Shown: positions 13,508-27,677 of the stretch, one piece after another
Numbering within the stretch: the stretch's first letter is position 1
How the letters are laid out: each line of letters starts with the position of its first letter
Assembly: GCA_963691715.1 (NCBI GenBank)
Contig: OY829281.1
Span: forward strand, 426,286-458,285
Direction: 5' to 3'
From: Balneolaceae bacterium
GTDB taxonomy: Bacteria > Bacteroidota > Rhodothermia > Balneolales > Balneolaceae
DNA: 32,000 nt
Made by a program: the position numbers and the translations under genes
The notes under the pieces: generated by a model
Seen by the model: only the letters and a program-made list of their open reading frames with translations
What the model was told of the DNA's origin: nothing
The model's database searches: none

Positions 13508-13546
13508 AATGTGACCGCTTTGTTATAAATAGCGATCACATTTTTT
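13508..13546 (+). terminator. Putative intrinsic terminator after pdhC
   Basis: AATGTGACCGCT (13508-13519) pairs with AGCGATCACATT (13531-13542) with one mismatch around an 11-nt loop, followed by a T-run to 13546. It abuts the stop of the convergent motB-like gene. Confidence 0.45.
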
Positions 13547-15380
13547 ACGGTCTATACTCTAAGGTAAAAATTACTGGATTGGTATTGAAAGAAAGGGCTT
13601 TGATTTGATTTAACCTTGCTTGAGTGTTGGATAAACTAGATGTTTGGCTAGTCATCACAGAATAAGCACCATTCAAATTCTCTACACGTGTATTAATTCC
13701 TGTGGCTGTTTGAATTTCTAGAGCTAAATTGTTTGCAGCACTGTTGTTTGAAAACACATTGACTTGAATTTGATAGGCATAGTTGTAGTTAAATACAGTT
13801 TCTGGTTGATGACGAATGAATAGATTAACTTTGAAATCCAAATTTCTGTATTCACTAAGTTTTTCCAATACTTCATTTCTTGTATTATATGGGCCTGTCA
13901 AAATGTTGTATGTATCTGAGATACGATTCATAAAAGCCTGAATATTGTGTTTATCAAATAGTTCCATCATAAATTCGGAACCATTTGATCTATTTTGGAA
14001 CGCACCAAATTGAATAAGGTATTTAACTGGTTTTGGCCTATTTATGGTGTTATTGTAGCATTGGTGTAGAACATATACGTCTGAATCTTTTAAAGTATTA
14101 GAGATTACTTTATGACGGTTTAATACGGTTGAAAATGATTGAACAGCATTAGTTCTTATGGAATAATTATTGCCGTTGTAAGTAAGTATAACCGGATCAG
14201 AAATTTTATTTTCTATTTCTGAGGCCTCTTTAAATGCAGATTGCAGAAGAGCAAACTCTCCTAACTGAAGAGAAAACTGACAACGCGCATCCACCTTAAG
14301 TAATGAAGGTATTGTACTAGGTATTTCTTCAGTCTTTGTAGGTGTCTCTAATACTGGTTCGATGTTAGGCTTACTTTCCTTTAAAGGTTTAGATTCTACT
14401 TCCAGTTTGTTTATAGATTGATTCTCAACTTCCTCTAAAGGCACATCTAAATTTAGTTGGTCTTGTTGTACATTATTGTTAGAGGTTTCGGTTTCTTTTT
14501 TTACTTCTTCTATTTTGTTCTGATCAACTAAAGTAACAATAGCTGGTTGATCTGCTAAAACTATTAAATTTCCATCATCAGGATTTTTTAAAGAAGGCTC
14601 AATAGATATATCGTTTTCTAAAGTATCGAATACTATAATTTTAGAATCTTCACTTTCCTCTAGATTTTCTTGATTAACTAAATTCTCAGATGAATAATAA
14701 AGTCTAAGAACCACTCGTCGGTTGGTTTCTTTACTTGCAGCGAATGGATATCCTAAAGAATCGTAGTCAATTACTGGTCTAGAATCTGCATAGCCAGAGG
14801 CTTTTAATCTTCTAGCGGGTATTCCCATGTCATTAAAATATTTAACAATATTAGCAGCTCTAGCAGTTGAAAGTTCCCAGTTTGATGGATATATAGATGA
14901 TTGAATAGGTGTGTTATCTGTATGTCCCTCTATGTCAATATTAAAATCATTGTATTGTAATTGCTGCATAGAAATTAGCACTCGATCGAGCAGATCTTCA
15001 GATCCAGCTTGTAATTTTGCTTCGCCAGAACTATAAAGATCATCACTTTTAAATCGTATTCGAAGATCATTTAAATCTCTTATGATTTCAAGAGAACCAG
15101 CTTCAATTTCAGATTTCAATAGGATAACTAATTCTTCTTGTATATTTCCAATAGGGGTTGTGAAATATTCAGTTTGATCCGCCAATTTGCCAAAAATAGA
15201 AGATAAGGACGAGAATTCTGATTTTGTAATTTGGGACAGCGATAAAAGTATAATTAAGAAACCTAAAACAATAGTTATAATATCGAGATAGCTAACCTGC
15301 CAATTATTGTCTTCTTCTTCTTCATAATCTTGAATAGGAAAAAGGGAATGCTTAATGATTATAGGTTCTTTTTTTTTCAC
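13545..15380 (-). CDS. MotB/PomB-like stator subunit with OmpA-like peptidoglycan-binding domain and three C-terminal SPOR-like repeats
   Basis: N-terminus NNWQVSYLDIITIVLGFLIILL matches the MotB TM helix (W-x-x-x-Y-x-D) and includes the conserved Asp. OmpA-like core IEGHTDNTP...SNWELSTARAANIVKYF...ASGYADSRPV...NRRVVL. After an acidic linker come three ~75-aa units with the SPOR pattern (FSLQLGEF..., YLIQFGAFQNRSNGSEF...YNILTGPYNTRNEV..., YQIQVNVFSNNSAANNLA...AYSVMTSQ...). Confidence 0.8.
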   Translation of the reverse strand: MKKKEPIIIKHSLFPIQDYEEEEDNNWQVSYLDIITIVLGFLIILLSLSQITKSEFSSLSSIFGKLADQTEYFTTPIGNIQEELVILLKSEIEAGSLEIIRDLNDLRIRFKSDDLYSSGEAKLQAGSEDLLDRVLISMQQLQYNDFNIDIEGHTDNTPIQSSIYPSNWELSTARAANIVKYFNDMGIPARRLKASGYADSRPVIDYDSLGYPFAASKETNRRVVLRLYYSSENLVNQENLEESEDSKIIVFDTLENDISIEPSLKNPDDGNLIVLADQPAIVTLVDQNKIEEVKKETETSNNNVQQDQLNLDVPLEEVENQSINKLEVESKPLKESKPNIEPVLETPTKTEEIPSTIPSLLKVDARCQFSLQLGEFALLQSAFKEASEIENKISDPVILTYNGNNYSIRTNAVQSFSTVLNRHKVISNTLKDSDVYVLHQCYNNTINRPKPVKYLIQFGAFQNRSNGSEFMMELFDKHNIQAFMNRISDTYNILTGPYNTRNEVLEKLSEYRNLDFKVNLFIRHQPETVFNYNYAYQIQVNVFSNNSAANNLALEIQTATGINTRVENLNGAYSVMTSQTSSLSNTQARLNQIKALSFNTNPVIFTLEYRP

Positions 15381-15392
15381 AATTGAAAGAAA

Positions 15393-16190
15393 TTAAATCA
15401 TATTTCTATTTCTTCGCATATGAGCCTGTAATCGGTCGTATATTTGAAGAGCAGATTTATTCTCTTCAATCAGTACTATTCCTTCTAATATTAATTTCTC
15501 TCTGAAGTAACGTAAGGAAGCAACATTATTCATTTTTTTTGCCATAGGCGTAAAAATGAAATTGCCAATTAAAATGCCATAAAGGGTTGTCATCAATGCA
15601 GCACCAAGTCCTGATAAAAGAGATTCAACCTCACTAAATCCTGATAAAATTACTATTAAACCAAAAAGTGTCCCCAACATACCAAAAATTGGTGATGTTT
15701 TACCCATACTTGCTATAATCTGGTTTACTAATTGTTGCCTAGTATAATTTTCTTCAATATTAATTTCACCTAACTCTCTTAAATCTTCGGTGGAATAATT
15801 GGTATCTAAAATTGAAAATAGATACCCTTCGAATCTATCGTTATATTCTTCGCTTAATGAAGTAACTGCGGCATATTTATCTTTTTTGATCATTTTTTGC
15901 CAATCCATTACCCGTTGTATATCCGACTCTAGTACATCAGGAGTGATCGTACTGTATGAAAATAATTTTGAACTTTCTAACAGAGCTTTTAACACACTAT
16001 TAAATGGATAACTAATAAATACACTTGCAGTAATACCCCCAAATACAATAGCTAAACTGGGTAAATTCAAGAATTCAAATCGAGAAGGTATAAGCTCGTA
16101 TTCAGTAAAGCCAATTACTAATAAAGCTCCCCAAACTAGAATTAACAATGAGATTAAAAAACATAGTAAGTTGAGAACTGAAGTTCGCAT
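15393..16190 (-). CDS. MotA/PomA-type proton (ion) channel stator subunit
   Basis: Four predicted TM helices in a 2 + long cytoplasmic loop + 2 topology. TM3/TM4 motifs SPIFGMLGTLFGLIVIL and AALMTTLYGILIGNFIFTPMAKKM match the MotA_ExbB family signature. At 265 aa it has no long C-terminal tail. The gene lies 12 nt upstream of the motB-like gene. Confidence 0.85.
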   Translation of the reverse strand: MRTSVLNLLCFLISLLILVWGALLVIGFTEYELIPSRFEFLNLPSLAIVFGGITASVFISYPFNSVLKALLESSKLFSYSTITPDVLESDIQRVMDWQKMIKKDKYAAVTSLSEEYNDRFEGYLFSILDTNYSTEDLRELGEINIEENYTRQQLVNQIIASMGKTSPIFGMLGTLFGLIVILSGFSEVESLLSGLGAALMTTLYGILIGNFIFTPMAKKMNNVASLRYFREKLILEGIVLIEENKSALQIYDRLQAHMRRNRNMI

Positions 16191-16196
16191 GAGTTA

Positions 16197-16733
16197 TTAA
16201 AATGCTTTATTTAAATTTTCATCAATAAGTCCATTAGCTTGTAATTGCTGAATTACATACGCAATAACAGGGATTGGTACATCAGGATCCATTTCAAGAG
16301 CTGTGCGCCACTGGTTAACAAATTCTTCCATATATCCTAAACCAAGATAAATACTTCCCCTCAGAGCTATAACATCGGCATTTTCTTTGATAAGTGCTGC
16401 ACGATTTATCAAAAGCAAAGCATTTTCGAAATCACCAACATATAAATTTTGTTGTGCTAAGATATAGTAATTACTTAATGTATTAGCTTGATCTTGATAT
16501 TGAGCATACATTTCATCTTTATATATTTTTGTCAATGAATTTCTAAGTTCTTCTTCTCTTTCTTGTGCTTCTGCTATGCTATCCGCCTTGGCTTTGGCAA
16601 GAGTTTGTTTTTGTATTTCATCCTCCGTTACCGAAATTATTTGCGGGTTTTCTTCTGATATATCAGATGTAGCAACACAATTAATCTGAATTATAAAAAT
16701 AAGTGATACAACTATTCTGAATTCTATACTCAT
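16197..16733 (-). CDS. Secreted or lipid-anchored TPR protein
   Basis: N-terminal hydrophobic signal ending ..IIQINC|VATS (possible lipobox-like Cys). A coiled, charged segment. Then two TPR-like repeats (YYILAQQNLYVGDFENALLLINRAALI..., ALRGSIYLGLGYMEEFVNQWRTALEMDPD). This module is paralogous to the C-terminal tail of the 962-aa protein. Confidence 0.55.
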   Translation of the reverse strand: MSIEFRIVVSLIFIIQINCVATSDISEENPQIISVTEDEIQKQTLAKAKADSIAEAQEREEELRNSLTKIYKDEMYAQYQDQANTLSNYYILAQQNLYVGDFENALLLINRAALIKENADVIALRGSIYLGLGYMEEFVNQWRTALEMDPDVPIPVIAYVIQQLQANGLIDENLNKAF

Positions 16734-16739
16734 AATGAA

Positions 16740-18566
16740 TTATCTTTGTTGTGAGCGGGTAGCATTTTTTCTGATTGCATTCATTAGTTGAGATTTGGCA
16801 TATTCTGTTTCAGATATACTTAGATCCCTAAGTTCATTTAATTCCATTTTAAGTAAACGTTGTTCTCTTTTTGGTCGAGTAGAAATAATTTTTTCTATTA
16901 CATCATCATCAAGTCCAACGATTGCATCTAGTAAGGTTTCAGTATTGAAAGAACTTACCGACTGTTTAATAATTTCTGTATCTAAGTTTACAAGCATATC
17001 TATAGTAATGAAATTCTTATTCAAAATCGCACCTATCACAGACCCCGTTGCTCGTAATTCATCGATATATTGCTTTTGATCAAATACTGGGATTTTTTCT
17101 AAAATTGGGTAAAGGTGTTCTGCACCATACTGTTCACTTTTTTCAGCTTCAACTAAATCCATGGCTTTATCAAATAGGTTGGAAGATATGCTTTGTTGTT
17201 GATCGTTTGTAAGGCTATTTAATGAAGCAATTTTCAACATAATATTAGCTGCAATTTCTTTGTTAAGCTGTTTTAACAAAGATGCAGCAGTTTCTTCTGG
17301 TATATAATTCAAGATAAAGGCACCAGAAAGAGTGTCCTCAGTTTCAAGAAGGGTTAATACATGTCGTTCTGGAATATGGTCGAGAAATTTGAACAAAGAA
17401 AATTTATTTCTTTTTCTTTCAGAGATAGATTGCTTCGACCCTTTGTGTAGCATGGAGCCAAACTCAATAATAAGTTCATTTCTCTGATCGATTGACATTG
17501 GGATGATTTCATTCAATTGATCTGAGATTAATTCATAATCCTCAGGATGTAATTCACGTTTAAGTGTACGTAATAAGTGTTTATCAGTTGCTATTATTAC
17601 ACGTGCTGCTTTTACGGCTCCATTATTTTCTTCGCTTAGCCAATATCTAAAGATCGTAGCCACTTCTTCAGGTGTTTCAAAAAATGAATTAATGATGGCT
17701 TCTTTGTACGTTTCTAGATGGTTTGTTTCATTTTCTAGTATCTTATTGGATTGTATATGATGGTCTCTATGAGAAACATATTCATTTTTGAAAGCTTCTC
17801 TAAAATCTTTGATTGGAATATGTGCGCTTGGTTTATTAATGAGTCGATTAAAAAGTATAGTTAAACCAATTAATAGCATCAATGCTAATGCGGGTATATA
17901 AGTTACAATAGAATTTAAGTCGGATAATGAGGTTTGTGGAGAGAAGTATGAAGCAGTAATCTGCTCTGGTTGCTCAGTATAGTCAGGTATATCTAATTGT
18001 GAAATGTAAATTTCATCTCCTCGATCTCTATTTATTTTAATTGCAATACCCGTAATAAACCTCATTAATTCTAATTGCTTTGCTTTTAATGAAGTATCTG
18101 CATATACATTTACTGTCATATTCACTACACGCAGAGTTTTAATTGTATTTTGATTTACAACCATTTCTGGCTCTGAGTTTAGTGTGCTTTGCGGTTTCCT
18201 ATTCTCTTCTGGTAAAAAAGGAAGACCTGGCATAAATAAATTCTGTTGTGGTCGGGTTCTAGGTGCTGCCTGATTTTGAATAATAGATATAGTTTCCTCT
18301 ACCAATTCTGCGTTGATGCTAACGTCTACAAAGAATTTCTTTCGATCGAAGTAATTTGCAAGAATCTGGATAATTTGAGTGTCATATTGTTGTTCTAGAT
18401 TTGAAACTCTTAATTCTAAAGATTCGGAATTAACAGTACCTGATAATGATTGTGAAAAGCCTAAATTTGCATTAAAAATAAATGAAAAAAATAGTATTAC
18501 AATTAGTGATAAAAAAGATTTATCACATAAAGAAACATTGAACTTTATTTTTAAAAGTTTAGCCAA
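16740..18566 (-). CDS. Membrane protein: FliF-like periplasmic module + TM + full-length FliG-like (N/M/C) cytoplasmic domain
   Basis: TM1 (LSLIVILFFSFIF), then ~190 aa periplasmic, then TM2 (YIPALALMLLIGLTILF), then ~380 aa cytoplasmic. The last 80 aa align position by position with the FliG C-terminal domain as I remember it: T. maritima DDRSIQKVLREVDTRDLALALKGASDELKEKIFKNMSKRAAALLKDELEY..VRLKDVEEAQQKIINIIRRL versus here DTEIIKQSVSSFNTETLLDAIVGLDDDVIEKIISTRPKREQRLLKMELNELRDLSISETEYAKSQLMNAIRKN. The middle domain is also FliG-like (ETEDTLSGAFILNYIPEETAASLLKQLNKEIAANIMLKIASLNSL, cf. EHPQ..A.IL.YL.PE.AA.VL..L..E....V..RIA). The periplasmic part has FliF/YscJ-like stretches (LEQQYDTQIIQILANY..VDVSINAEL; LRVVNMTVNVYAD...ITGIAIKINRDRGDEIYI, cf. 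the FliF ..GfD..RGD.V.V motif). Confidence 0.65.
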   Translation of the reverse strand: MAKLLKIKFNVSLCDKSFLSLIVILFFSFIFNANLGFSQSLSGTVNSESLELRVSNLEQQYDTQIIQILANYFDRKKFFVDVSINAELVEETISIIQNQAAPRTRPQQNLFMPGLPFLPEENRKPQSTLNSEPEMVVNQNTIKTLRVVNMTVNVYADTSLKAKQLELMRFITGIAIKINRDRGDEIYISQLDIPDYTEQPEQITASYFSPQTSLSDLNSIVTYIPALALMLLIGLTILFNRLINKPSAHIPIKDFREAFKNEYVSHRDHHIQSNKILENETNHLETYKEAIINSFFETPEEVATIFRYWLSEENNGAVKAARVIIATDKHLLRTLKRELHPEDYELISDQLNEIIPMSIDQRNELIIEFGSMLHKGSKQSISERKRNKFSLFKFLDHIPERHVLTLLETEDTLSGAFILNYIPEETAASLLKQLNKEIAANIMLKIASLNSLTNDQQQSISSNLFDKAMDLVEAEKSEQYGAEHLYPILEKIPVFDQKQYIDELRATGSVIGAILNKNFITIDMLVNLDTEIIKQSVSSFNTETLLDAIVGLDDDVIEKIISTRPKREQRLLKMELNELRDLSISETEYAKSQLMNAIRKNATRSQQR

Positions 18567-18584
18567 AAGATAGATTTATATATA

Positions 18585-21473
18585 CTAGTCGAATTCACTG
18601 GTATCGATTCCTTGTTCCAATACTTCCATATTTGGTATGTAAAGGTTAGGATTAAATCTCAGCGCTTGTTCCCATTCACGTTGAGCTTGTTCGATATTTC
18701 CTTCAAAATAATAAAAACTTCCCTTTAATGCGTAAGCTTGAGCAGTTTCAAAAAGTTCTAATGATTCACTTACAAATTTAAAAGCTGAATTCATATCTTT
18801 ACTATAAAAGGCGTTTTGAGCTTTTACTATAAGACGTAGTGATGCATCAATTTTGTTAAAAAGTTCTTGGGAATATTCTAAGATTTGAGGAGAGGCTTTA
18901 ATTTGTTCAGTTATTCGTTCTATAGCTAGAATGCTAGCACTATCTTCAACACTCTCTTCTGTCTCTTTCAAAGGTAATAAAGTAAAATTTAGCCCTTCTA
19001 TAAAATCGCCACTTGGCGTAATTTTTATCTCAAATTCAATGGCTTCTGGTTCCGATTTTGAATCTAAAAGTTCTAATTGAGCAGGATCAATCTCTAGTAT
19101 ATATTTTCCTGGTGCGATGGGATATTCATAAAAGCTACCATCCGAAAATGTTCTTAATTCTTTAGTTTCGTTTTCTCCAATTTTACGTAAAAGAACTTTT
19201 AAGCCACCAATACCTTTTGTTACATTATCTTCATATTGTCGCTCCACTATTCCCTCCATCACACCACTTGTATTAAATGGTATTTGAATCAACTTAAAAC
19301 TATTAGGGTCTGTGATAATAGAAAATTCTTCATATTCAGGCACTAACATAGGATTCGAAATCGTCGATGTGTTTATACCCATATTATAGCGGTAGTATGA
19401 AAGTAACTGAGTGTAGTAGAGCACCCCATTTTTATAAAAAGATTGTGCCCCTCCACGCCCAAGTCTAAGTTTTGCATCAGGTAGTAAATCATCCCCGCTA
19501 TTATAAAGCCCATTTGAATCATTATCTATAAATAGCTGTATAGCAGCTCCCGATTTACCAACTTGATTTCTACTAGTTAATATGAAATGATTAAAGTTTG
19601 AATCATATCCTATCGAGCCTCTTACATTTTGAGTTATATTGTAAGAATCACGTATCGTAGAAAATGTAGAATTACTCCTTATTTTTTTTAAATCTATTAT
19701 AAAATTTACCCTTGCTGAGGTATAATTTTGCTGGAAATTCCGACCTATTGATGCTTGTAATCTCCCTACCTTAAATACATTTTTTGAGAATAAAAATTCA
19801 CCAGATTCTATTTTATCATCTGATAATCGATATCTAGACTGAGCTCTCAAGAAAGTACCTCTTAAAAGGGGAGGGATATTTGGGTTTTTGGATACAGTAA
19901 AGGTAGCCGAAGCATCAATCACACCAGTATCACTAGATGTAAAGGGATCAAATGTATCTATCAAACGATCAGAATACCCAAGTCGAATACTCATTTTTTT
20001 TATCCGTGTACTCACATCAAATCGCTGAGTATTTGTTAATACATTCTGTCTTACGCGAATAAAATTTGAAATTCGAAGATTTAAAGGAAGTTTGAAAAAT
20101 TTAGCAGGATAAAATATAGAGGATAATATTTGACGGGAGTTATTCGAAGAATTAAAAATACTTTCACCACCATAATACTCGGTAACATCAATATTGAAAC
20201 TTGCCGTATTTGGATAGATCACATTCAAATTTGAACGAACGTAAGCGTCTGATACTCCTTCGATCGTAAATATATAGTTTTTCGAAATTCTTGATGAGAT
20301 GGAAGCAGTATAGAAGGGTTCATTTTTACCAATCTCTTCAGAATAATATTCAACTCCAAAACGCGCACTTAACCATTTTGTAAGCCCATATGAAATATTA
20401 CCTTGTATTGTTCTATTCCTAATTGTAGAACCGATTAATGGATTATCCAATACTCCTGCATTAAAACGATAGTCGAGTTTACCCTTTGGCACAAAATTGA
20501 AGGGAACTTGTACTCGAGTTGTTCGGGTGATCAATTGACCAGTTGGCCCATAAATTTTTAAATCTAGTTGAGACGACCCATAGTTTAGAGGAGCTAGAAA
20601 TCTATAGTCCCCGATTTCGTTGGCTAATTGATAATCGATCAATCCATTATTTAAATACAGCTCAACTTCTGATAAAGGAATTGTAGTGCCCTTAATTTCA
20701 AATTCATCAAAAAATCGACGTGGCTCCACTGGATCATTAGTAATACGTAGCCCAGTATACTGAGCTCCATATACTCCATCTAAAGGAGACTGACCCAATG
20801 ATATTGAACTGATCCATGGTGTATCTCGTATAAGTGTTTTCCATCTTAAATTATCTGTTTCAAGTACAGAGGCATCAGTATTTGAATTTCCAAATATATT
20901 TCCTTGTAGATCACCACCAAGCACCTGTACTCCAAAGGAACCACTGTAACTTAATGATTGTACTTCAGGTTGTATGTTGCTTGAAAAAGCATAATCAAAA
21001 AACCCTCCATCCAAAATAGTTCTTTCTCTTCCTTTTCGTAATTGAAAATATGTTACTTCATTTGATTTATTCGATATACGTCTTTTATTTTTTCGTAAAC
21101 TACGCTCAACAACGGGTAATTCAACATCAGTAGTTAAGTCAAGGCTCAAGTTATTAATATCAACAGAAAATTCTAGGCCAAAGACGGAACGGAAAAAAGC
21201 AGGTGTAAAATGAAAATCAAGGTCTGTTAAATAATAATCGCTAGATGTTAAAGGATAATCAAAACCATCAAAATTAGCCAATTGCCGAGTAAAATCAATC
21301 GTATATGAAGTTTGTTCAAATCCAAATTTTCCAGATATTTCTAAACCATCTACATTCGATTGCAACTCTAGGATATTGAATAATTCTAGCATAGGAAGAT
21401 AGAACTGCTCCCCATCGTAATAAGTAATAACTACGGTATTTACTACCCCTCGATACCTAAAGTCAAGATACAC
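18585..21473 (-). CDS. Fimbrial usher-like outer-membrane protein with carboxypeptidase-regulatory-like domain and C-terminal TPR tail; 5' end unresolved
   Basis: EIKGTTIPLSEVELYLNNGLIDYQLANEIGDYRFLAPLNYGSSQLDLKIYGPTGQLITRTTRVQVPF matches the conserved usher stretch (FimD: GIARTQAQVTIKQNGYDIYNSTVPPGPFTIDDIYAAGNSGDLQVTIKEADGSIQTLYVPY). It is followed by ~500 aa of alternating, beta-barrel-like sequence, GGLKVLLRKIGENETKELRTFSDGSFYEYPIAPGKYILEI (CarboxypepD_reg-like), and a TPR tail. The ORF track starts at GTG 21473, but a signal-peptide-like sequence is encoded in frame upstream of it (see findings). Confidence 0.55.
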   Translation of the reverse strand: MYLDFRYRGVVNTVVITYYDGEQFYLPMLELFNILELQSNVDGLEISGKFGFEQTSYTIDFTRQLANFDGFDYPLTSSDYYLTDLDFHFTPAFFRSVFGLEFSVDINNLSLDLTTDVELPVVERSLRKNKRRISNKSNEVTYFQLRKGRERTILDGGFFDYAFSSNIQPEVQSLSYSGSFGVQVLGGDLQGNIFGNSNTDASVLETDNLRWKTLIRDTPWISSISLGQSPLDGVYGAQYTGLRITNDPVEPRRFFDEFEIKGTTIPLSEVELYLNNGLIDYQLANEIGDYRFLAPLNYGSSQLDLKIYGPTGQLITRTTRVQVPFNFVPKGKLDYRFNAGVLDNPLIGSTIRNRTIQGNISYGLTKWLSARFGVEYYSEEIGKNEPFYTASISSRISKNYIFTIEGVSDAYVRSNLNVIYPNTASFNIDVTEYYGGESIFNSSNNSRQILSSIFYPAKFFKLPLNLRISNFIRVRQNVLTNTQRFDVSTRIKKMSIRLGYSDRLIDTFDPFTSSDTGVIDASATFTVSKNPNIPPLLRGTFLRAQSRYRLSDDKIESGEFLFSKNVFKVGRLQASIGRNFQQNYTSARVNFIIDLKKIRSNSTFSTIRDSYNITQNVRGSIGYDSNFNHFILTSRNQVGKSGAAIQLFIDNDSNGLYNSGDDLLPDAKLRLGRGGAQSFYKNGVLYYTQLLSYYRYNMGINTSTISNPMLVPEYEEFSIITDPNSFKLIQIPFNTSGVMEGIVERQYEDNVTKGIGGLKVLLRKIGENETKELRTFSDGSFYEYPIAPGKYILEIDPAQLELLDSKSEPEAIEFEIKITPSGDFIEGLNFTLLPLKETEESVEDSASILAIERITEQIKASPQILEYSQELFNKIDASLRLIVKAQNAFYSKDMNSAFKFVSESLELFETAQAYALKGSFYYFEGNIEQAQREWEQALRFNPNLYIPNMEVLEQGIDTSEFD

Positions 21474-21562
21474 CTCAAAATGATCTTCATCTTGGGCAAA
21501 GGAATTAGTGACAAAGCACAGAGAAAAAACTATAAAAAAAAAAGACTTTTTTTCAAGTAAAC

Positions 21563-22399
21563 TTAATTTCTTTTAGAGTAAGTTGTGGTGTTAGAAACAG
21601 TTTTCATTTGAACTAAATCAGTACTTGAAATATCAGAGCGCTGTGATTCGAATGTGATATTGATAGAATACGTGTCGTTAGGCAGATCTTTTATATCAAA
21701 AATATTTTTATAGATCCCATCAAAATAGATAGAAGTAGAAGAGAACGCACGTCTAACTTCTTCACCAGATGGGTTTTTCATTGTAGCGGTTATGGAGCCC
21801 AAAAAAGGAGAATTACCTGTTCGTTTTATATCAGTAAGTAGTGTTAGCGTACCTTTTTCACTGTCATAATTGGTATTCATATCACTAATTTCAATTCCGG
21901 TAGTTACATTCCCTTTTTTATAAAAAATTCCTGTTATTTGCTCAACTCTAATTCCTACTTTTGCAGAAACGGTGTTTGAAGCTTGTAATTCTACAGGTGG
22001 TGCTTCTGGACTTGAACCTGTTTTAATTCTCGCCCAATACGTGCCGTCAGGCAGATCGCTTGGAGGACTTAATCTTAAACGTACGATTTGCCGTTGATCT
22101 TTAGCAAGGGTAAAATTTCTAGGAAATGCTTTAATGTACTCGGCAATAGAATATTGATCTTCTATTTCTGGATCATCAGTAACGATTGATCTTGTTCCAG
22201 CGCTGTCTGAACTACTGTATGAAAATGTAAAGTCTATGGAAATCTCTTGAGTTTCATTGGAGTTATTAATGACCATATAGGTTCCAAATCTCGTATTCCC
22301 CTCAATGAACATATTTGTAGGTGCAATGGTAATTTGAGAAATACCACTGTCAATTATGAATATCGATAACAATGGTATTAAGAATAGATATTTTTTCAT
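21563..22399 (-). CDS. PapD-like periplasmic fimbrial chaperone (putative)
   Basis: Signal peptide MKKYLFLIPLLSIFIIDSGISQ. The N-domain pattern ITIAPTNMFIEG..GTYMVINNSNETQEISIDF...FPRNFTLAKDQRQIVRLRLSPPSDLPDGTYWARIK resembles the Pili_assembly_N pattern (v.l.pTRvIy....s..l.v.N......lvq.w.....PF.vtPPl.rl.p...q.lRi....LP.DrEs). At 278 aa it has a two-domain size, and it sits directly upstream of the usher-like gene. Confidence 0.5.
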   Translation of the reverse strand: MKKYLFLIPLLSIFIIDSGISQITIAPTNMFIEGNTRFGTYMVINNSNETQEISIDFTFSYSSSDSAGTRSIVTDDPEIEDQYSIAEYIKAFPRNFTLAKDQRQIVRLRLSPPSDLPDGTYWARIKTGSSPEAPPVELQASNTVSAKVGIRVEQITGIFYKKGNVTTGIEISDMNTNYDSEKGTLTLLTDIKRTGNSPFLGSITATMKNPSGEEVRRAFSSTSIYFDGIYKNIFDIKDLPNDTYSINITFESQRSDISSTDLVQMKTVSNTTTYSKRN

Positions 22400-22463: not shown

Positions 22464-22497
22464 TATAAAAAAACCCCTTCCTTAGGAAGGGGTTTGG
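22464..22497 (-). terminator. Rho-independent terminator after the 176-aa fimbrial subunit gene
   Basis: On the minus strand the sequence reads AAACCCCTTCC-TAA-GGAAGGGGTTT followed by TTTTTATAG. The stem is GC-rich in an AT-rich genome (core CCCCTTCC/GGAAGGGG, 22474-22481 and 22485-22492) and starts about 18 nt after the stop at 22515. Confidence 0.8.
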
Positions 22498-22514: not shown

Positions 22515-23045
22515 TTATTGATAAACAAAGGAAACTGATAAGTCTGAGCCACCAGTAAGGTTAGTGGAGTAAACACCATTAGCTTGGCTTGCATCCACAC
22601 CTAGCGAACCACCTATATCTAAGGTAATTTGTCCGTCTGATGATACATCTTGAAATTTTATTACTGTTGTTCCGCTAGTTACCTGGTCTCCACCAACCCA
22701 AATGTCTGGTGTGAATGTCATAGAATTAGAGCCACCATCAGAAAGTGTAGCAGTGGTGAATGTTGCAATTACTTCTGCACCTATAACACCGTCAGATAAT
22801 AAAATTCTTCCTGGGGATGCACCATTACCAACATCTACGCTTACAGCGTCATTTCCATTTGCAGCAAGATTTGGAGAAGTATTAGCTGTTATGCTACCAA
22901 ATTCAACTGCTGTAGTTGTGATGGTTAAAGAGGTAGTAACAGTTGCATTAACATCTACGGTTGTACTTTCGTCCTGCGCATTCACAGTTGGGATAATTAA
23001 AATTGAAAGTAAGAATACCGGTATTAATTTTAATAAATTTTTCAT
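22515..23045 (-). CDS. Secreted DUF4402/SCPU-like (Csu-type) fimbrial subunit, probable major subunit
   Basis: Signal peptide ..PTVNA|QDE. Thr/Ser/Gly/Val-rich beta-strand sequence with the layout I associate with DUF4402: VDVNATVTTSLTITTTAVEFGSI...(core)...ITLDIGGSLGVDASQANGVYST...SVSFVYQ. It has its own 95-nt upstream spacer and a strong terminator downstream. Confidence 0.6.
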   Translation of the reverse strand: MKNLLKLIPVFLLSILIIPTVNAQDESTTVDVNATVTTSLTITTTAVEFGSITANTSPNLAANGNDAVSVDVGNGASPGRILLSDGVIGAEVIATFTTATLSDGGSNSMTFTPDIWVGGDQVTSGTTVIKFQDVSSDGQITLDIGGSLGVDASQANGVYSTNLTGGSDLSVSFVYQ

Positions 23046-23140
23046 GGTTTTATCTATTGTGATTTTTGTTTTTTTTAAAGTTATTTAATGTCTTTTGTAT
23101 TTCCTAGTTAAAAACTCTTAATTAAAATTGTTTAAGTTTA

Positions 23141-23674
23141 TTAATCGAACTCTATTTGTAAGATAATATCTCCACTGTATTCACCTAAGGCAATATTGCC
23201 CACAGTGATTGAGCCAAACACATATATATAGACCGACTTCCAAACTTCGGATGATGCATTCTCAGTTGTATTAGTGTTTGATTGCACAGGTAAATACCCC
23301 GTATTGTTTGGAATGATGGTAGCTAATTCTGTCTTATTTGTACCGCTGTTATTGTAAGCAATAGACATTTCAATGGGAATTTGGTCTACAACAGTGGGGT
23401 TGGGATGGGTTAAAGCAGGAGGATAATCTAAGCTGACAAAAATACTTTGTGTGTGGTATGCCTTAATGTTAAATACTCCCATACCCATATCGCCTAGCCC
23501 TACTGCGAATGAGCCTGAATTAGCTGCTAAATCCCCAAAACTAAAATCGCTCTCCACAGAAGCACTTAACTCGGGTTCTATGGTAATCTGTAGATTTAGA
23601 AATTGTGCACTTAAATCTAAAATATTAAAGTGTACGATCAATGCTATGTATAAAAATTTAATCATAGCTGACAC
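23141..23674 (-). CDS. Secreted DUF4402/SCPU-like fimbrial subunit paralog
   Basis: Signal peptide. ..FSFGDLAANSG.. near the N-terminus. C-terminus VFGSITVGNIALGEYSGDIILQIEFD shares the G-x-Y-x-G-x-(I/F)-x-(I/L)-x-(I/V)-x-(Y/F) ending with its neighbours. The gene overlaps the upstream gene by 17 nt (8 nt if the second Met is used). Confidence 0.5.
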   Translation of the reverse strand: MSAMIKFLYIALIVHFNILDLSAQFLNLQITIEPELSASVESDFSFGDLAANSGSFAVGLGDMGMGVFNIKAYHTQSIFVSLDYPPALTHPNPTVVDQIPIEMSIAYNNSGTNKTELATIIPNNTGYLPVQSNTNTTENASSEVWKSVYIYVFGSITVGNIALGEYSGDIILQIEFD

Positions 23675-24263
23675 TTATGTTTATTGTACCCATGTAACTT
23701 CCGCTAACTAGATTGCCGGTTGTTGTAACGGTAGGATAAATATAAAGATAAGCAGTATCATTATATAAAGAAGGGTTATATCCTTCAAATACAGGAGTTG
23801 GTGGTGGTCCTGGGGGGGTATTTCCACCTTTATTACGAATTGGAAATAATGCATTTGCGGTGGAACCTACTACCAAAAAATTAATGGCATGATCGGTATT
23901 ATCTTGTCCTAAGTTAGCGTAAGCAGCTCTTAGATTGAGGGGTAAACGTCGAGTTGGATCATTTTGGTTGTTTGGATCGTCGTCCAGTAATAAATGGGAA
24001 TCAGCAATTATTTCAACAAATACGTCTAAATATTCTACTCCTTCAATCGAAAAAACTTTAGAGTCTTGAATATCAATAGCCGTAGTTTCCCCAGCTTGGT
24101 CAATAATTATACCAAAATCTAATGCACTACCCGGATTAACCTCAGACAAAATAACAGAATATTGTGAACTATAGCTGCCAAAATCAATTTCCTGACTGAT
24201 AAGGTATTTGTTGTTCAAAAAAGTCATGAGTAGTAAAAGTATATACGTATTAAACCTCTTCAT
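23658..24263 (-). CDS. Secreted DUF4402/SCPU-like fimbrial subunit paralog with Pro-rich insert
   Basis: Signal peptide. ..LDFGIIIDQAG.. near the N-terminus. GGNTPPGPPPTP insert. C-terminus YIYPTVTTTGNLVSGSYMGTINISVSYD carries the shared motif. Its start overlaps the stop of the upstream gene by 1 nt. Confidence 0.5.
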   Translation of the reverse strand: MKRFNTYILLLLMTFLNNKYLISQEIDFGSYSSQYSVILSEVNPGSALDFGIIIDQAGETTAIDIQDSKVFSIEGVEYLDVFVEIIADSHLLLDDDPNNQNDPTRRLPLNLRAAYANLGQDNTDHAINFLVVGSTANALFPIRNKGGNTPPGPPPTPVFEGYNPSLYNDTAYLYIYPTVTTTGNLVSGSYMGTINISVSYD

Positions 24264-24757
24264 TAGATGTAATCGATCTCTATCGTAAAATCGCCTTCAT
24301 AGTTCCCTGGTTCTGCGTTTTCAAGATTTAATACACCACCTAACCAGATATAAAATGTACCTTCATTGTTAAAGCGTAGATTTCTATTTTGATATTGAAT
24401 TATATCAGAAGTAGATTGATCATCTATAGTATTACCTGAAAGTTCATATCTGAATGTTAAATAACCTGGGCCCTCTATTCTGTCTAGCCTTTTCTCTAAA
24501 TCATAATCTAATCTAAATTCGGCTTCGGGTGTACCTAGAGCAACCATATGCCCTGAATTGAGGTCATTAATTGGATTAATTGTGATGATAACTTGGCCAG
24601 GTTGAGTATTTTCTAAACTTAATGGATTTACAGTTATTAATTCTATTGATTGTGTAACTTCAGCATTTATATTGAGTTGAGCACTAACAGAGGTGTCGTC
24701 CTGAGCAATGGTTGAGGAAGGAATCAAGAAAAATATTATAAGAATCAGTAATCTCAT
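24263..24757 (-). CDS. Secreted DUF4402/SCPU-like fimbrial subunit paralog
   Basis: Signal peptide MRLLILIIFFLIPSSTIA|QDD. VSAQLNINAEVTQSIELITVNPLSLEN... C-terminus FYIWLGGVLNLENAEPGNYEGDFTIEIDYI closely follows the DUF4402-type ending (..vGGtL.v...q..G.Y.G.f.vtv.Y). Confidence 0.55.
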   Translation of the reverse strand: MRLLILIIFFLIPSSTIAQDDTSVSAQLNINAEVTQSIELITVNPLSLENTQPGQVIITINPINDLNSGHMVALGTPEAEFRLDYDLEKRLDRIEGPGYLTFRYELSGNTIDDQSTSDIIQYQNRNLRFNNEGTFYIWLGGVLNLENAEPGNYEGDFTIEIDYI

Positions 24758-24846: not shown

Positions 24847-25245
24847 CTACCATGCAAATGCGTTGAAATATATAGGATCTAGATTAACTTCACGATTTTG
24901 AAGTTGGATTGCTCTTGGCATTGCCTCTTCTTCTTTTATGAAATTGATCATCATTTCAAAATTATACTTGAGCATATTATTACGGAATCTAGGGGAAAAA
25001 CGAATAGTTATTGAATAAATGCTGTCTATAGGTTCTTCATCTAGTAAGTAATAAGGATTGGGTGTATTTATTGGATAAAGATCTCCAATAATTTTGATAT
25101 TGTCTCTGCCTGGAATAAAAGTACTGTCTTCCAATTGAGGTTTCAAATTTACATTAAAAGTAATTTCAGTAGATTGTGCTTGTGCATTAAAAATGCACCA
25201 CATACTGATATAAAAAATAAAAAGTAAAGGCTTGAATTGATTCAT
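24847..25245 (-). CDS. Small secreted protein, CBM20-like/Ig-like beta-sandwich (tentative)
   Basis: Signal peptide ..IFNAQA|QST. ITFNVNLKPQ...FIPGRDNIKIIGDL....LLDEEPIDSIYSITIRF......LKYNFEM loosely follows the starch-binding-domain pattern (v.F.v......G..v.vvG.......l......W...v.l......YKy). Function unknown. Confidence 0.3.
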   Translation of the reverse strand: MNQFKPLLFIFYISMWCIFNAQAQSTEITFNVNLKPQLEDSTFIPGRDNIKIIGDLYPINTPNPYYLLDEEPIDSIYSITIRFSPRFRNNMLKYNFEMMINFIKEEEAMPRAIQLQNREVNLDPIYFNAFAW

Positions 25246-25248
25246 CGT

Positions 25249-26664
25249 TTAATCTTGTAAATGTGTTACCTCATCTTTCCAATAGACAATTGAAAAGACG
25301 CTTTCTCTTGGAAATGAAGGAGGGATGGAAGCCTTTAATCTGTTATCATATTGGTAGTTTTTAGAATATCCAGAATATATGTTAGATATGCTTCCAGTTC
25401 CAACAGGGCCTCTATTATTTTGAATAAGCCCCCCTAAGATATTTAATGTACCTCTGTAGCAACAAACGTTAAAATTTTCAACTGAAAATGAATCATTTAG
25501 AGCCATAACAGATGCATGTATTGTTAAATCTTCTTGACCTGAAAATAAATGAGCTTGATCGTCAACTTGAACTTCCCCTTCACTCACTAAGCCTAACATA
25601 TCAGTACTAGAAGAGTCTACCATTGGGTTGGTATGGTAGGTTATATCTCCATCTATTTCTATAAAAGACTCAGAATGTAAAGTGATACTGCCTTTTACTT
25701 CCCCGTGAACGTCAACTCGTTCAGAAGTTGAAATAATCCCATTAATTGTACTTAAGTCATACTCAACAGGATCGCCCCATACATCGTTAATTTTTTCTGA
25801 AATACTAGCATACCCTACATCATCAGATTCATAAAATGTAACATTAATTTCGTTCTCGAATCTTAGTCCGCCATTTTCAGCTGATTCTTTAATACGACCT
25901 ACCTCATAAGTAGTTGGTTCATTTTTTGAAGGTGCATTAAAGTTTTCTCCACCATAAAAATTTGGATTAGTTGGATACCACCAATGAGCCCTCCACATAT
26001 TAGGACTTGTAATAAGACCATAGAAGGAGGGATCTCCAAACATAGAAAACTCTCCATTCGTATGGATAGGGCCGTGTATCTCGTCATCTGGAGCAAACCA
26101 AATAGTATAACCTTGCGAACTTAATTCGGATTGCGTCATGTAAGAATATTTAGAAAAAGAGTCTCTCTGCATTAAAACCTCGGTTGTGATTTGTGTATCG
26201 TCATAAATGGCGGTACTCATAAGTAAAACTTTATATTCATCCCAACTAGTTACGCTATTATCTGGAATATCAGGACTATTTTGAGTATAAATATTTAATA
26301 TTCCATTCATATAAACTCTACTACCAATTTCACCACTGTTTTGTAAAGCTGCCTCGATATTTTTAAGCTCATCAAGTGTTATCTCTCCAAGGGTATATTG
26401 TTTTCTTGCATTGTAAGATCTTGCATGTAAGGCTAAAGTATCCACAACACTCCCAACAGGAATGCTACCAACCCAATCATTATCATTTTTAATAGTTTCT
26501 ATGGCATTATCAATGAGTGATTTAGATATATTCCTAGCTTGTTCTTCATTATAAAATTTAGATGAAAGATCAGGAATCTCGGAAATACGTTTGGAATTAT
26601 TAATTTGGATTAATCCCGTTATAATTGTTAAACCACTAACTAAAAGTAATAGACTTCTTCCCAT
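25249..26664 (-). CDS. PilX-like protein (N-terminal hydrophobic anchor, large beta-rich C-terminal domain)
   Basis: N-terminus MGRSLLLLVSGLTIITGLIQ followed by ..EEQARNISKSLIDNAIETIK resembles the PilX_N pattern (hydrophobic helix, then A..~AEAGl~~a). The C-terminal end GTLNILGGLIQNNRGPVGTG....GYSKNYQYDNRLKASIPPSFP resembles the G.l.i.Gsli......YD.rl....PP.fp ending of PilX/DUF4900-type type-IV-pilus tip proteins. There is no Gly-Phe-Thr-Leu-Ile-Glu prepilin motif. Confidence 0.4.
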   Translation of the reverse strand: MGRSLLLLVSGLTIITGLIQINNSKRISEIPDLSSKFYNEEQARNISKSLIDNAIETIKNDNDWVGSIPVGSVVDTLALHARSYNARKQYTLGEITLDELKNIEAALQNSGEIGSRVYMNGILNIYTQNSPDIPDNSVTSWDEYKVLLMSTAIYDDTQITTEVLMQRDSFSKYSYMTQSELSSQGYTIWFAPDDEIHGPIHTNGEFSMFGDPSFYGLITSPNMWRAHWWYPTNPNFYGGENFNAPSKNEPTTYEVGRIKESAENGGLRFENEINVTFYESDDVGYASISEKINDVWGDPVEYDLSTINGIISTSERVDVHGEVKGSITLHSESFIEIDGDITYHTNPMVDSSSTDMLGLVSEGEVQVDDQAHLFSGQEDLTIHASVMALNDSFSVENFNVCCYRGTLNILGGLIQNNRGPVGTGSISNIYSGYSKNYQYDNRLKASIPPSFPRESVFSIVYWKDEVTHLQD

Positions 26665-26673
26665 AGTATTTTA

Positions 26674-27258
26674 TTAATAAGGTAAATTAATATTATTAGG
26701 TACAAATATTCTTTTCCAGATTAATCGAGGATATTGTACGTTGTCTTTATTTATGGAGTAAGGTTCTGCTGTTTCTATAATAATTTCAACTTCAACTTTT
26801 TTCACTGCAGATTTATCCGAAGTGACAATCCCGTTTGCTGTGAAATAGGTGATTTCAAAATGAACAACTGGAAAGGAGATGGTCGCATATTCATCGGTAT
26901 CAATTGGGCCGATGCGTTTTAAGAAGAAATCATTAGGATTCGATGAAGATGTAACTGGATCTGAGGTGTCGAATAGCCATTGTACATTGGTAGAGCCGAA
27001 ATTATCATTATCAAAAACGTCAGCTTGGAATATGATATTTTTACTATCAATTGTAGAAAATGGAACAGCATTACCTGTTTTAAAACCAATTTTACTAAAA
27101 TCATTATCTAACATTTCTACTAAATTACCTAATGAATTATGATTTAGTGAACTAAGAAGTAATTCATGGCTTTGGTTCACCACTTGGTTGTTAAAAGCGA
27201 GGATTGATATAAGAAATAACCCACCTATTATAAATGTTATAGTAATTGCAGAATTCAT
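26674..27258 (-). CDS. PilW/PulJ-like minor-pilin-like protein (non-canonical N-terminus)
   Basis: N-terminal hydrophobic helix AITITFIIGGLFLISILAF. LVEMLDNDFSKIGFKTGN resembles the PilW ..l..Dlr.aGy.. segment. At 194 aa it is 9 nt upstream of the PilX-like gene and overlaps the preceding gene by 1 nt. Confidence 0.35.
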   Translation of the reverse strand: MNSAITITFIIGGLFLISILAFNNQVVNQSHELLLSSLNHNSLGNLVEMLDNDFSKIGFKTGNAVPFSTIDSKNIIFQADVFDNDNFGSTNVQWLFDTSDPVTSSSNPNDFFLKRIGPIDTDEYATISFPVVHFEITYFTANGIVTSDKSAVKKVEVEIIIETAEPYSINKDNVQYPRLIWKRIFVPNNINLPY

Positions 27259-27677
27259 TAATAGCTATATGACTTTACATATTCCAAATTAATAAAAATA
27301 TCAGGAGTTACTTGTTGGTTTAATACCGAGATCACCACTTGGTACCGTTTCATTGTGCCTGTGTCTTCTATCAAATCTGAGGTGCCACTAATTATGAAAG
27401 TACTTGTGTATTGATCGTTGTTGCCATAAGATTGTGTTTCAATAATTGGATAATTTGCATATACGTAGCTTGCACTGTTTGGATTTAAATCATTGGGATC
27501 ATAAATCCATTGTACTTTATCTAGTTCGTCTTGAGCTACTGCAATGGCTCTACTTTCGGCTTCTGCTATATAAAGAGTTTGTCTAGAGTTATTGAAACTT
27601 TTCGCAGTATTTAAGCTTAAGAACGAAAATACTACCATTGCAGCGATCAAATATAATATTTCAGAGTAACTTGTCAT
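27258..27677 (-). CDS. PilV/GspI-like minor-pilin-like protein (non-canonical N-terminus); first gene of the cluster
   Basis: MTSYSEILYLIAAMVVFSFLSL is a pilin-like N-terminal helix with Glu at precursor position 6 (position 5 if only Met1 is removed), but there is no Gly at -1 and no leader peptide. It is followed by YIAEAESRAIAVAQDELDK, as in small minor pilins. Length 139 aa. Confidence 0.35.
   Translation of the reverse strand: MTSYSEILYLIAAMVVFSFLSLNTAKSFNNSRQTLYIAEAESRAIAVAQDELDKVQWIYDPNDLNPNSASYVYANYPIIETQSYGNNDQYTSTFIISGTSDLIEDTGTMKRYQVVISVLNQQVTPDIFINLEYVKSYSY

Follow-up and report, generated by a model that had tools for sequence, protein, structure and literature searches.

The window analysed here, a 32,000-nt stretch of contig OY829281.1 (GCA_963691715.1) from a Balneolaceae bacterium, contains two adjacent genes for proteins of 278 and 962 amino acids (aa) which, as shown by predicted fold and operon context, encode a genuine periplasmic chaperone and outer-membrane usher of a highly diverged pathway. 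The predicted usher ends in a TPR tail, and the genes directly downstream encode a FliF/FliG-like protein, a TPR lipoprotein and a MotA/MotB-type stator. Comparison of related loci revealed that the type of usher tail and the presence of the motor genes vary together. The best explanation overall, which we consider probable, is a diverged chaperone-usher pilus pathway in which the TPR tail docks the usher on a FliF/FliG-like/MotAB complex. All coordinates are window positions unless the genome is given.

The host genome is a single contig of 3.24 Mb with 35% G+C, and the closest matches of the window proteins were all from Balneolaceae (Balneola, Gracilimonas). An earlier, sequence-only reading of the window had proposed a PapD-like chaperone and a usher-like outer-membrane protein with a C-terminal TPR tail; the corresponding open reading frames were found at 22399-21563 (278 aa) and 21473-18585 (962 aa), both on the minus strand. 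They form part of a single co-directional gene string on that strand, from 27677 to 13545, in the order three one-helix proteins and a 132-aa protein, four secreted paralogues, the 278-aa protein, the 962-aa protein, the FliF/FliG-like protein, the TPR protein, MotA and MotB. Intergenic gaps are 6-18 nt throughout from the chaperone gene to motB. The features on which the argument depends are the following.

21563-22399, minus strand: PapD-like periplasmic chaperone, 278 aa, with a signal peptide and two immunoglobulin (Ig)-like beta-sandwich domains (AlphaFold2 and Foldseek)
21129-21473, minus strand: predicted usher N-terminal periplasmic domain, residues 1-115 (AlphaFold2 model)
20739-21014, minus strand: predicted barrel strands beta1-beta6, residues 154-245 (DSSP of the AlphaFold2 model)
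20511-20720, minus strand: predicted plug domain, residues 252-321, a six-strand insert between beta6 and beta7 (AlphaFold2 model; predicted local distance difference test score, pLDDT, 54-63)
19602-20477, minus strand: predicted barrel strands beta7-beta24, residues 333-624 (18 strands in the AlphaFold2 model)
18972-19553, minus strand: two predicted C-terminal periplasmic beta-sandwiches, residues 641-720 and 726-834, in the positions of usher C-terminal domains CTD1 and CTD2 (AlphaFold2 model)
18588-18971, minus strand: acidic linker, residues 835-861 (pLDDT <50), followed by residues 862-955, which form a long helix and two TPR hairpins (AlphaFold2, TPR_2 and paralogy)
16740-18566, minus strand: membrane-anchored FliF-like/FliG fusion, 608 aa (FliG_C 2e-12, FliG_M 2e-8, YscJ_FliF_C 0.007)
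16197-16733, minus strand: TPR lipoprotein, 178 aa, paralogue of the usher tail (sequence identity; lipobox cysteine conserved in orthologues)
13545-16190, minus strand: 265-aa MotA-like stator protein and 611-aa MotB-like protein, the latter with a plug, an OmpA-like domain, a linker and SPOR repeats; both identified by Pfam

A model of the usher was obtained with AlphaFold2 from an alignment of 38 sequences (overall pLDDT 81.4) and its strands were assigned by DSSP. The long beta-rich region noted in the sequence-only reading was predicted to form a barrel of 6 + 18 = 24 strands, with the plug after strand 6, followed by two beta-sandwiches, and both structural hallmarks that had been proposed as a check, plug and 24-strand barrel, were thus present in the model. 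Foldseek comparison of the model with the PDB returned FimD/PapC as the first 18 chains (expectation values, E, of 5e-28 to 6e-9); the best non-usher match was an SdrD B-domain (2e-7), and porins and LptD followed at 1e-6 or worse, so that the search pointed to a usher and not to a TonB-dependent-receptor or BamA-like fold. Target-normalised template modelling (TM) scores to the FimD/PapC translocation domains 3ohn, 2vqi and 3fip were 0.54-0.63 (E 1e-13 to 7e-16). The segment that had first been recognised as usher-like, FEIKGTTIPLSEVELYLNNGLIDY...YRFLAPLNYGSSQLDLKIYGPTGQ, is contained in the predicted plug, which shows the highest conservation in the family (G262, E271, N276, G288, Y290, F292, P295, Y298, G299 and G312 are invariant) and is the region of contact with the Pfam Usher family PF00577. 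That family was touched by two of the 38 members, the best being orthologue P0117, of which residues 270-424 aligned to positions 54-209 of the PF00577 hidden Markov model, again the plug region, at 25.8 bits against a cut-off of 27.1.

The N-terminal domain, which in FimD/PapC ushers receives chaperone-subunit complexes, is folded in the model over about 115 residues and gave no PapC_N match; six of the 38 homologues weakly match Cu_amine_oxidN1 there. At the sequence level, the two C-terminal sandwiches are similar to SdrD_B (26/38 family members) and CarboxypepD_reg (22/38) and not to PapC_C. The suggestion of a CarboxypepD_reg-like domain where ushers carry their C-terminal Ig-like domains therefore holds for the homologues but not for the window protein itself, which had no CarboxypepD_reg match at E<0.1. 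Some orthologues carry the pipeline name 'outer membrane usher protein FimD/PapC', and the order subunits-chaperone-usher is kept at every examined locus for which the upstream flank is available.

The chaperone was modelled in the same way from a 39-sequence alignment. Its model (pLDDT 85.9) consists of two beta-sandwich domains, and CfaA, Caf1M, FimC, EcpB, CsuC and PapD were its top Foldseek matches in the PDB (E 5e-9 to 1e-6, probability 1.0), the sole other family among them being enterococcal WxLIP. The two Ig-like domains expected of a PapD-like protein are hence both predicted, and PapD-family chaperones head the list. TM-scores to these chaperones were 0.45-0.58 (target-normalised), moderate values that are expected for two hinged domains. 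The PapD N-domain pattern that had been read from the sequence was found as RLRL...LPDG.YW and is conserved across the family, with R107, R109, G119 and W122 invariant. Between strands F1 and G1 the model has a long, low-confidence loop with alternating hydrophobic residues (V144, A146, V148, I150 and V152) followed by a conserved ITGIFYKK; in the alignment A146 is invariant and V144 nearly so, and the consensus is AVxARVGIxVEQVTGLFYKKG. The V144-V152 run looks like a putative G1 donor strand, and the low confidence of the loop is what a free chaperone would show. Four arginines, R103, R107, R109 and R124, are invariant in the family and K161 is near-invariant. In PapD the basic pair Arg8/Lys112 holds the C-terminus of the subunit in the cleft; an equivalent pair was not identified in the window chaperone, where the position of Arg8, judged by eye, corresponds to T28/N29. 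Some orthologues have been named PapD, fimbrial chaperone or 'P pilus assembly chaperone PapD' in JGI/NCBI annotation.

Beyond the two sandwiches the window usher has an extra linker and TPR tail of 126 residues. The sequence-only reading of this region as helical and TPR-like is borne out by the model, in which a floppy linker of about 25 residues leads to helical residues 862-955 with hairpins at 894-907/911-924 and 927-940/949-955. TPR_2 was detected at residues 911-943 (E 0.0018), at 18.7 bits below the cut-off of 27, and in 23 of 38 usher homologues (best E 6e-6). The tail shares 31% identity over 65 residues with the 178-aa TPR protein of the window (E 2e-10) and 35% identity with a 207-aa TPR lipoprotein of a second motor module in the same genome (see below); it is evidently a paralogue of the TPR lipoproteins of both modules. 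Since the N- and C-terminus of a 24-strand usher both face the periplasm, the tail would be located there, and a periplasmic location is further supported by the alternative usher tail, which consists of SPOR domains colinear with the SPOR tails of MotB. We infer from this that the tail is periplasmic and flexibly tethered. SPOR domains bind peptidoglycan.

A set of 80 related loci from species-representative genomes was annotated with the window proteins, and 74 Balneolaceae ushers with judgeable downstream content were placed on a tree. Two classes of usher were distinguished: ushers of about 1000 aa with a TPR tail, and longer ushers (1140-1550 aa) with an extended linker and either SPOR domains (Pfam SPOR, E to 7e-19) or a tail without a match to the SPOR probe. 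A FliF/FliG-like gene was found downstream of all TPR-tailed ushers (41/41), together with the 178-aa TPR protein, MotA and MotB-SPOR in 40 of them, and motor genes were found downstream of none of the 33 SPOR- or other-tailed ushers. On a maximum-likelihood tree calculated from the usher core only, with the tail removed, parsimony gave nine changes of tail type, at least seven of which were on well-supported branches, and all seven phylogenetically independent pairs were concordant for tail and motor genes (sign test p = 0.016).

Balneola vulgaris, which was absent from the comparative set, served as an out-of-sample test. It has the same upstream genes and chaperone, a 1169-aa SPOR-tailed usher and no motor; directly after the usher gene come the convergent E2/E1-beta/E1-alpha/AlaRS genes, which also border the window operon. 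Identity between the two ushers is 51% as far as the acidic linker, exactly where their homology ends. The B. vulgaris tail is related instead to the SPOR region of the window MotB (28% identity over 149 aa, E 2e-11), and usher SPOR tails in general are colinear with MotB SPOR tails to the C-terminus (E up to 2e-20), so that the 3' end of the operon is SPOR-coding sequence in both types of locus. At this syntenic site the two types evidently differ by one cassette, comprising the TPR tail, the FliF/FliG-like gene, the TPR lipoprotein gene, motA and the N-terminal two-fifths of motB. Identity between usher-SPOR and MotB-SPOR tails is about 25%, and MotB tails of sister taxa share only about 29%; since the tails evolve very fast, a simple history of deletion or insertion, such as a recent in-frame deletion that joined the usher core to the MotB tail, is attractive but undemonstrable. 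The OmpA-like tail initially assigned to a distant usher (L107) proved an artefact of the full-length MotB profile and is SPOR by Pfam.

The usher family was present in 54 of the 61 Balneolaceae genomes that were sampled. In a sister family of the same order, one locus (L109, 6893-15772) has the same usher-TPR and motor arrangement, with a 1533-aa usher that carries about 500 extra residues and its TPR motif at the extreme C-terminus, two chaperone genes, a 690-aa FliF/FliG-like protein and a short MotB without SPOR. Members with 24-32% identity over the whole core were also found in scattered other families of the phylum; these are tail-less (847-915 aa) or SPOR-tailed and still adjoin a chaperone gene, and subunit genes were recognisable at two of three such loci examined.

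The motor proteins of the window were identified from MotA_ExbB (3e-16) in MotA and from OmpA (5e-14), SPOR (8e-11) and MotB_plug (2.5e-7) in MotB. A second motor module is located at 2.85 Mb (genome 2851153-2856183) and encodes a 614-aa FliF/FliG-like fusion, a 359-aa protein, the 207-aa TPR lipoprotein (lipobox SVGC followed by S), MotA and a short MotB. The 359-aa protein, which has a signal peptide and ends in the beta-signal VVRF, is a predicted outer-membrane protein; the module has no usher, chaperone or pilin genes. Upstream it is bordered by genes for SufE, a hybrid histidine kinase and a PAS protein. A FliF/FliG-like, TPR and MotAB unit with an outer-membrane partner thus appears to be a recurring design in this organism, and in the window the partner would be the usher, which carries its own copy of the adaptor. 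The genome also has a full flagellar set (genome 3172261-3236851 and 348-758), with FliF (194 bits), a canonical FliG (125 bits), FlhA (859 bits) and a flagellar-cluster MotA, and at least seven flagellin-like genes, one with an in-frame TAA. Given this complete set, the rotor/stator genes of the window are extra paralogous copies; export gate, rod, hook, FliM/N and filament genes were not found at the window locus.

The genes upstream of the chaperone gene supply candidates for the fibre itself.

22515-24757, minus strand: four paralogous secreted subunits (164, 201, 177 and 176 aa), DUF4402-like (Pfam, below threshold)
22471-22495, minus strand: strong terminator-like hairpin with an 11-bp stem and a T-run, between the gene of the 176-aa subunit and the chaperone gene

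The subunits reached Pfam DUF4402 with E of 4e-4 and 6e-4, below the 25.2-bit cut-off, and among 20 orthologues of the 176-aa subunit eight matched this family (best E 2.3e-5). Their signal peptide is followed by a conserved stretch in which hydrophobic residues alternate, V.V.A.V.AAL.L, and the C-terminus is formed by a strand G.Y...TFTV.Y; these features fit putative donor-strand pilins of the archaic type. The subunits gave no SCPU match, and their profile gave none among PDB sequences. In classical chaperone-usher operons an attenuator follows the gene of the major subunit, in the same position as the hairpin, which suggests by analogy that the hairpin may be an attenuator raising the major subunit relative to the assembly proteins.

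The mechanism that we propose is as follows. Judging from their family, the four DUF4402-type subunits would be polymerised by donor-strand complementation and exchange, with the 176-aa protein as the likely major subunit. The usher tail would be a second copy of the adaptor, the TPR lipoprotein found with FliF/FliG-like and MotAB modules in these bacteria, and, as comparative genomics suggests, would plug the usher into the inner-membrane rotor/stator complex, itself anchored to peptidoglycan by MotB with its OmpA-like and SPOR domains. In motor-less lineages SPOR domains would instead sit directly on the usher; with SPOR tail and TPR-motor as the alternatives, the usher would always be tied to the cell wall, directly or via a proton- or sodium-driven motor. 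Docking of the tail on the downstream FliF/FliG-like and TPR proteins, already envisaged in the sequence-only reading, has strong comparative support, although the contact itself is a prediction. The chaperone-usher pathway is the textbook example of outer-membrane assembly that consumes no energy, and ushers are regarded as independent of partners in the inner membrane; any coupling of the motor's energy to the usher is pure inference on our part. Candidate effects of the motor on the usher or the fibre are gating, rotation, extrusion and retraction. A chaperone-usher pathway coupled to an ion-driven rotary motor, in which a FliF/FliG-like ring turned by MotAB would grip the usher via TPR adaptors, would amount to a previously undescribed kind of powered pilus, a possibility that we put forward tentatively and hold to be doubtful.

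Several observations weigh against docking of a diverged usher on the motor complex. At the sequence level, neither protein is recognised by the corresponding family models: the window usher had no PF00577 match at E<0.1, nor was one found in a six-frame scan of the genome, the chaperone had no PapD_N or PapD_C match at E<0.1, and hhalign comparison of the family profiles with E. coli K-12 FimD and FimC gave probabilities of 2.6% and 0.3%, respectively. Searches of PDB sequences with phmmer or the family profiles returned only designed TPR proteins for the usher (38 members) and nothing for the chaperone (39 members), and against Pfam/NCBIfam the window usher gave the sub-threshold TPR hit only and the chaperone nothing meaningful. 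The plug was modelled with low confidence (pLDDT 54-63), and its placing inside the pore is a prediction only. At one locus (L045, 9893-14178), the TPR-tailed usher and the TPR protein are kept, but of the FliF/FliG-like protein there is only a FliF-like N-terminal part of 275 aa, and MotAB has been lost together with FliG; syntenic downstream genes begin directly after the TPR protein gene there. Motor-less relatives, and tail-less ushers in other families, indicate that the fibre pathway needs no motor. The tail-coding region and the motor genes are adjacent and can be swapped as one block, so that their co-variation demonstrates linkage and maintenance, not contact. Finally, the usher start is out of frame in the window genome and the gene may be off.

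The linkage argument can be taken further. The chaperone-usher pair could be real and the TPR tail unrelated to the motor, the tail holding chaperone-subunit complexes or a wall enzyme, the motor acting on another target, and the co-variation reflecting inheritance as one cassette. The tail-coding region abuts the motor genes and the breakpoint relative to B. vulgaris falls exactly at the linker, as would be expected of such a cassette; moreover, the second FliF/FliG-like, TPR and MotAB module has a different outer-membrane protein and no usher, and there are ushers with neither motor nor tail. We nevertheless judge this interpretation unlikely. Through at least seven switches there was no TPR tail without a downstream FliF/FliG-like gene and no motor behind a usher of another type, the tail is a paralogue of a TPR lipoprotein family encoded only inside these motor modules, and at loci lacking the motor the wall-binding SPOR tail, otherwise a part of MotB, is carried by the usher.

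The start of the usher gene requires separate consideration. The 962-aa call is N-terminally truncated and lacks a signal peptide, whereas orthologues are about 1000 aa and those inspected all have an in-frame signal peptide ending ...TNSFAQD. Such a signal peptide is encoded upstream of GTG 21473 in the same frame; no stop interrupts this frame as far back as 21572, yet the stretch contains no start codon. The only usable start is a TTG in another frame, eight bases past the chaperone stop.

21534-21556, minus strand: probable true usher start, with TTG (21556-21554), A7 and a T10 run (21543-21534), read from the sequence

The TTG frame crosses A7 and T10 into a TAG, and translation from the TTG stops after 8 codons. 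The two frames would be joined by a -1 slip on T TTT TTT or by a single additional U in the mRNA, giving a product MKKSLFFFIVFSLCFVTNSFA followed directly by QDEDHFEVYL; tract lengths that restore the usher frame are T8 and T11. The T10 tract was identical in two independent Logan assemblies of a strain with a 99% identical usher protein and is thus no assembly error. In the 3.24-Mb genome, A/T runs of at least 10 are fewer than expected from composition (13 observed against about 58), with a sharp fall from 165 nine-mers to 11 ten-mers, and the 13 long runs showed no general pattern of location at the 5' ends of surface genes. The combination of T TTT TTT with a nearby 0-frame stop is a classic -1 slippery context, and T runs of nine or more promote transcriptional slippage. 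T10 may represent programmed slippage, a phase-variation OFF state or decay.

On the explanation favoured here, a secreted usher in the window genome would additionally need slippage at T10 just past the start codon. Alternatively, the usher gene may be off or decaying in this genome, with T10 as the OFF state of phase variation or a fresh frameshift, so that the GTG-initiated 962-aa product could not reach the outer membrane. The early stop in the TTG frame, read directly from the sequence, the missing signal peptide of the 962-aa product, its in-frame presence in the inspected orthologues and the rarity of long A/T runs are all in line with a gene that is off. The same T10 in the second strain argues otherwise, as do the intact signal-peptide codons upstream, the intact remainder of the 2.9-kb frame and the slippery context, and loss of expression or decay seems to us an improbable account. 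That the 962-aa protein is another outer-membrane barrel (a porin, or an LptD-like, BamA-like or TonB-dependent receptor protein) with a superficial likeness to ushers is very hard to credit: the missing Pfam match, the negative hhalign comparison with FimD and global TM-scores of only 0.4-0.6 would allow it, but twenty orders of magnitude separate the usher matches from any other barrel in Foldseek, the model places a plug between beta6 and beta7 of a barrel with exactly 24 strands, and at every examined locus the gene has those of a PapD-fold chaperone and of pilin-like subunits as neighbours.

Further upstream the cluster contains an additional group of genes.

24847-27677, minus strand: four genes (139, 194, 471 and 132 aa) upstream of the subunits, kept with the pilus genes and duplicated in several relatives

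The 139-, 194- and 471-aa proteins have one N-terminal hydrophobic helix each, in which a prepilin-peptidase motif was not found, and the 471-aa protein matches DUF4900 (E 8e-8). The cluster is adjoined upstream by a gene for a surface protein of at least 1360 aa (27880-31962, minus strand) with Invasin_D3 and a type IX secretion C-terminal sorting domain, of which a 2513-aa counterpart is encoded in the same position in B. vulgaris.

The predicted architecture resembles that of the FimD/PapC and FimC/PapD systems of Enterobacteria in a candidate usher N-domain, the 24-strand barrel with its beta6/beta7 plug, the two C-terminal sandwiches, the two-Ig-domain chaperone encoded immediately upstream, and the subunit genes further upstream with a terminator-like hairpin after the last. 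It differs from them in that the window proteins have no detectable sequence similarity, the C-terminal domains are SdrD_B/CarboxypepD_reg-like, the usher has the 126-residue linker and TPR tail, and the operon runs on into rotor/stator genes. Several small paralogous subunits, in the window putatively of the SCPU/DUF4402 kind, are also typical of archaic (sigma) systems, such as Acinetobacter Csu (CsuA/B-A-B-C-D-E) and the Myxococcus spore-coat protein U; CsuC is among the best structural matches of the window chaperone (query-normalised TM 0.43-0.46), and these systems likewise occur in environmental, non-enteric hosts. Unlike in Csu, the window subunits reach DUF4402 below threshold only, and no tip-adhesin gene follows the usher gene. 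To our knowledge, TPR and SPOR tails are absent from Csu ushers, which also lack associated motor genes.

As a concept, an inner-membrane stator of the MotAB family linked via periplasmic adaptors to an outer-membrane barrel is shared with ExbBD-TonB, TolQR-TolA-Pal, GldLM/PorLM-PorKN of type IX secretion and AglRQS-Glt of Myxococcus, and TPR proteins and lipoproteins are connectors in several 5:2-motor systems that act on the outer membrane. In contrast to these systems, the window stator is of the flagellar MotA/MotB type with a FliF/FliG-like rotor, and the proposed outer-membrane partner is a pilus usher; we know of no pairing of a MotA/MotB-type stator with a FliF/FliG-like rotor outside flagella. 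With the flagellar motor core (FliF MS-ring, FliG and MotA5B2) the window shares the middle and C-terminal domains of FliG and a MotA/MotB pair with plug and OmpA-like domain. The fusion of the FliF-like membrane/periplasmic part to FliG in one chain is reminiscent of the natural FliF-FliG fusion of Chlamydiaceae (PMC4768692), which, unlike that of the window, is not linked to MotAB or a usher. A survey of MotAB relatives and their evolution is among the nearest published items and does not describe the arrangement found here (PMC12505986). Our literature searches found no paper on ushers with TPR or SPOR tails or on ushers linked to MotAB/FliG.

New here are the fold-level identity of usher and chaperone, the rule linking tail and motor, with its independent switches and out-of-sample test, and the problem of the T10 start. 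Because this chaperone-usher lineage is beyond the reach of Pfam, standard annotation misses it. Both types are represented by culturable strains, namely Gracilimonas tropica DSM 19535 (TPR type with motor) and Balneola vulgaris and Gracilimonas halophila (SPOR type without motor), so that genetics and cryo-tomography are feasible. The loci point to a usher family with interchangeable periplasmic tails, SPOR for the wall when the usher is alone and a TPR adaptor whenever a rotor/stator set lies behind it, and this pattern of tail and motor offers a testable handle on a possible trans-envelope link from an ion-driven motor to a pilus pore.

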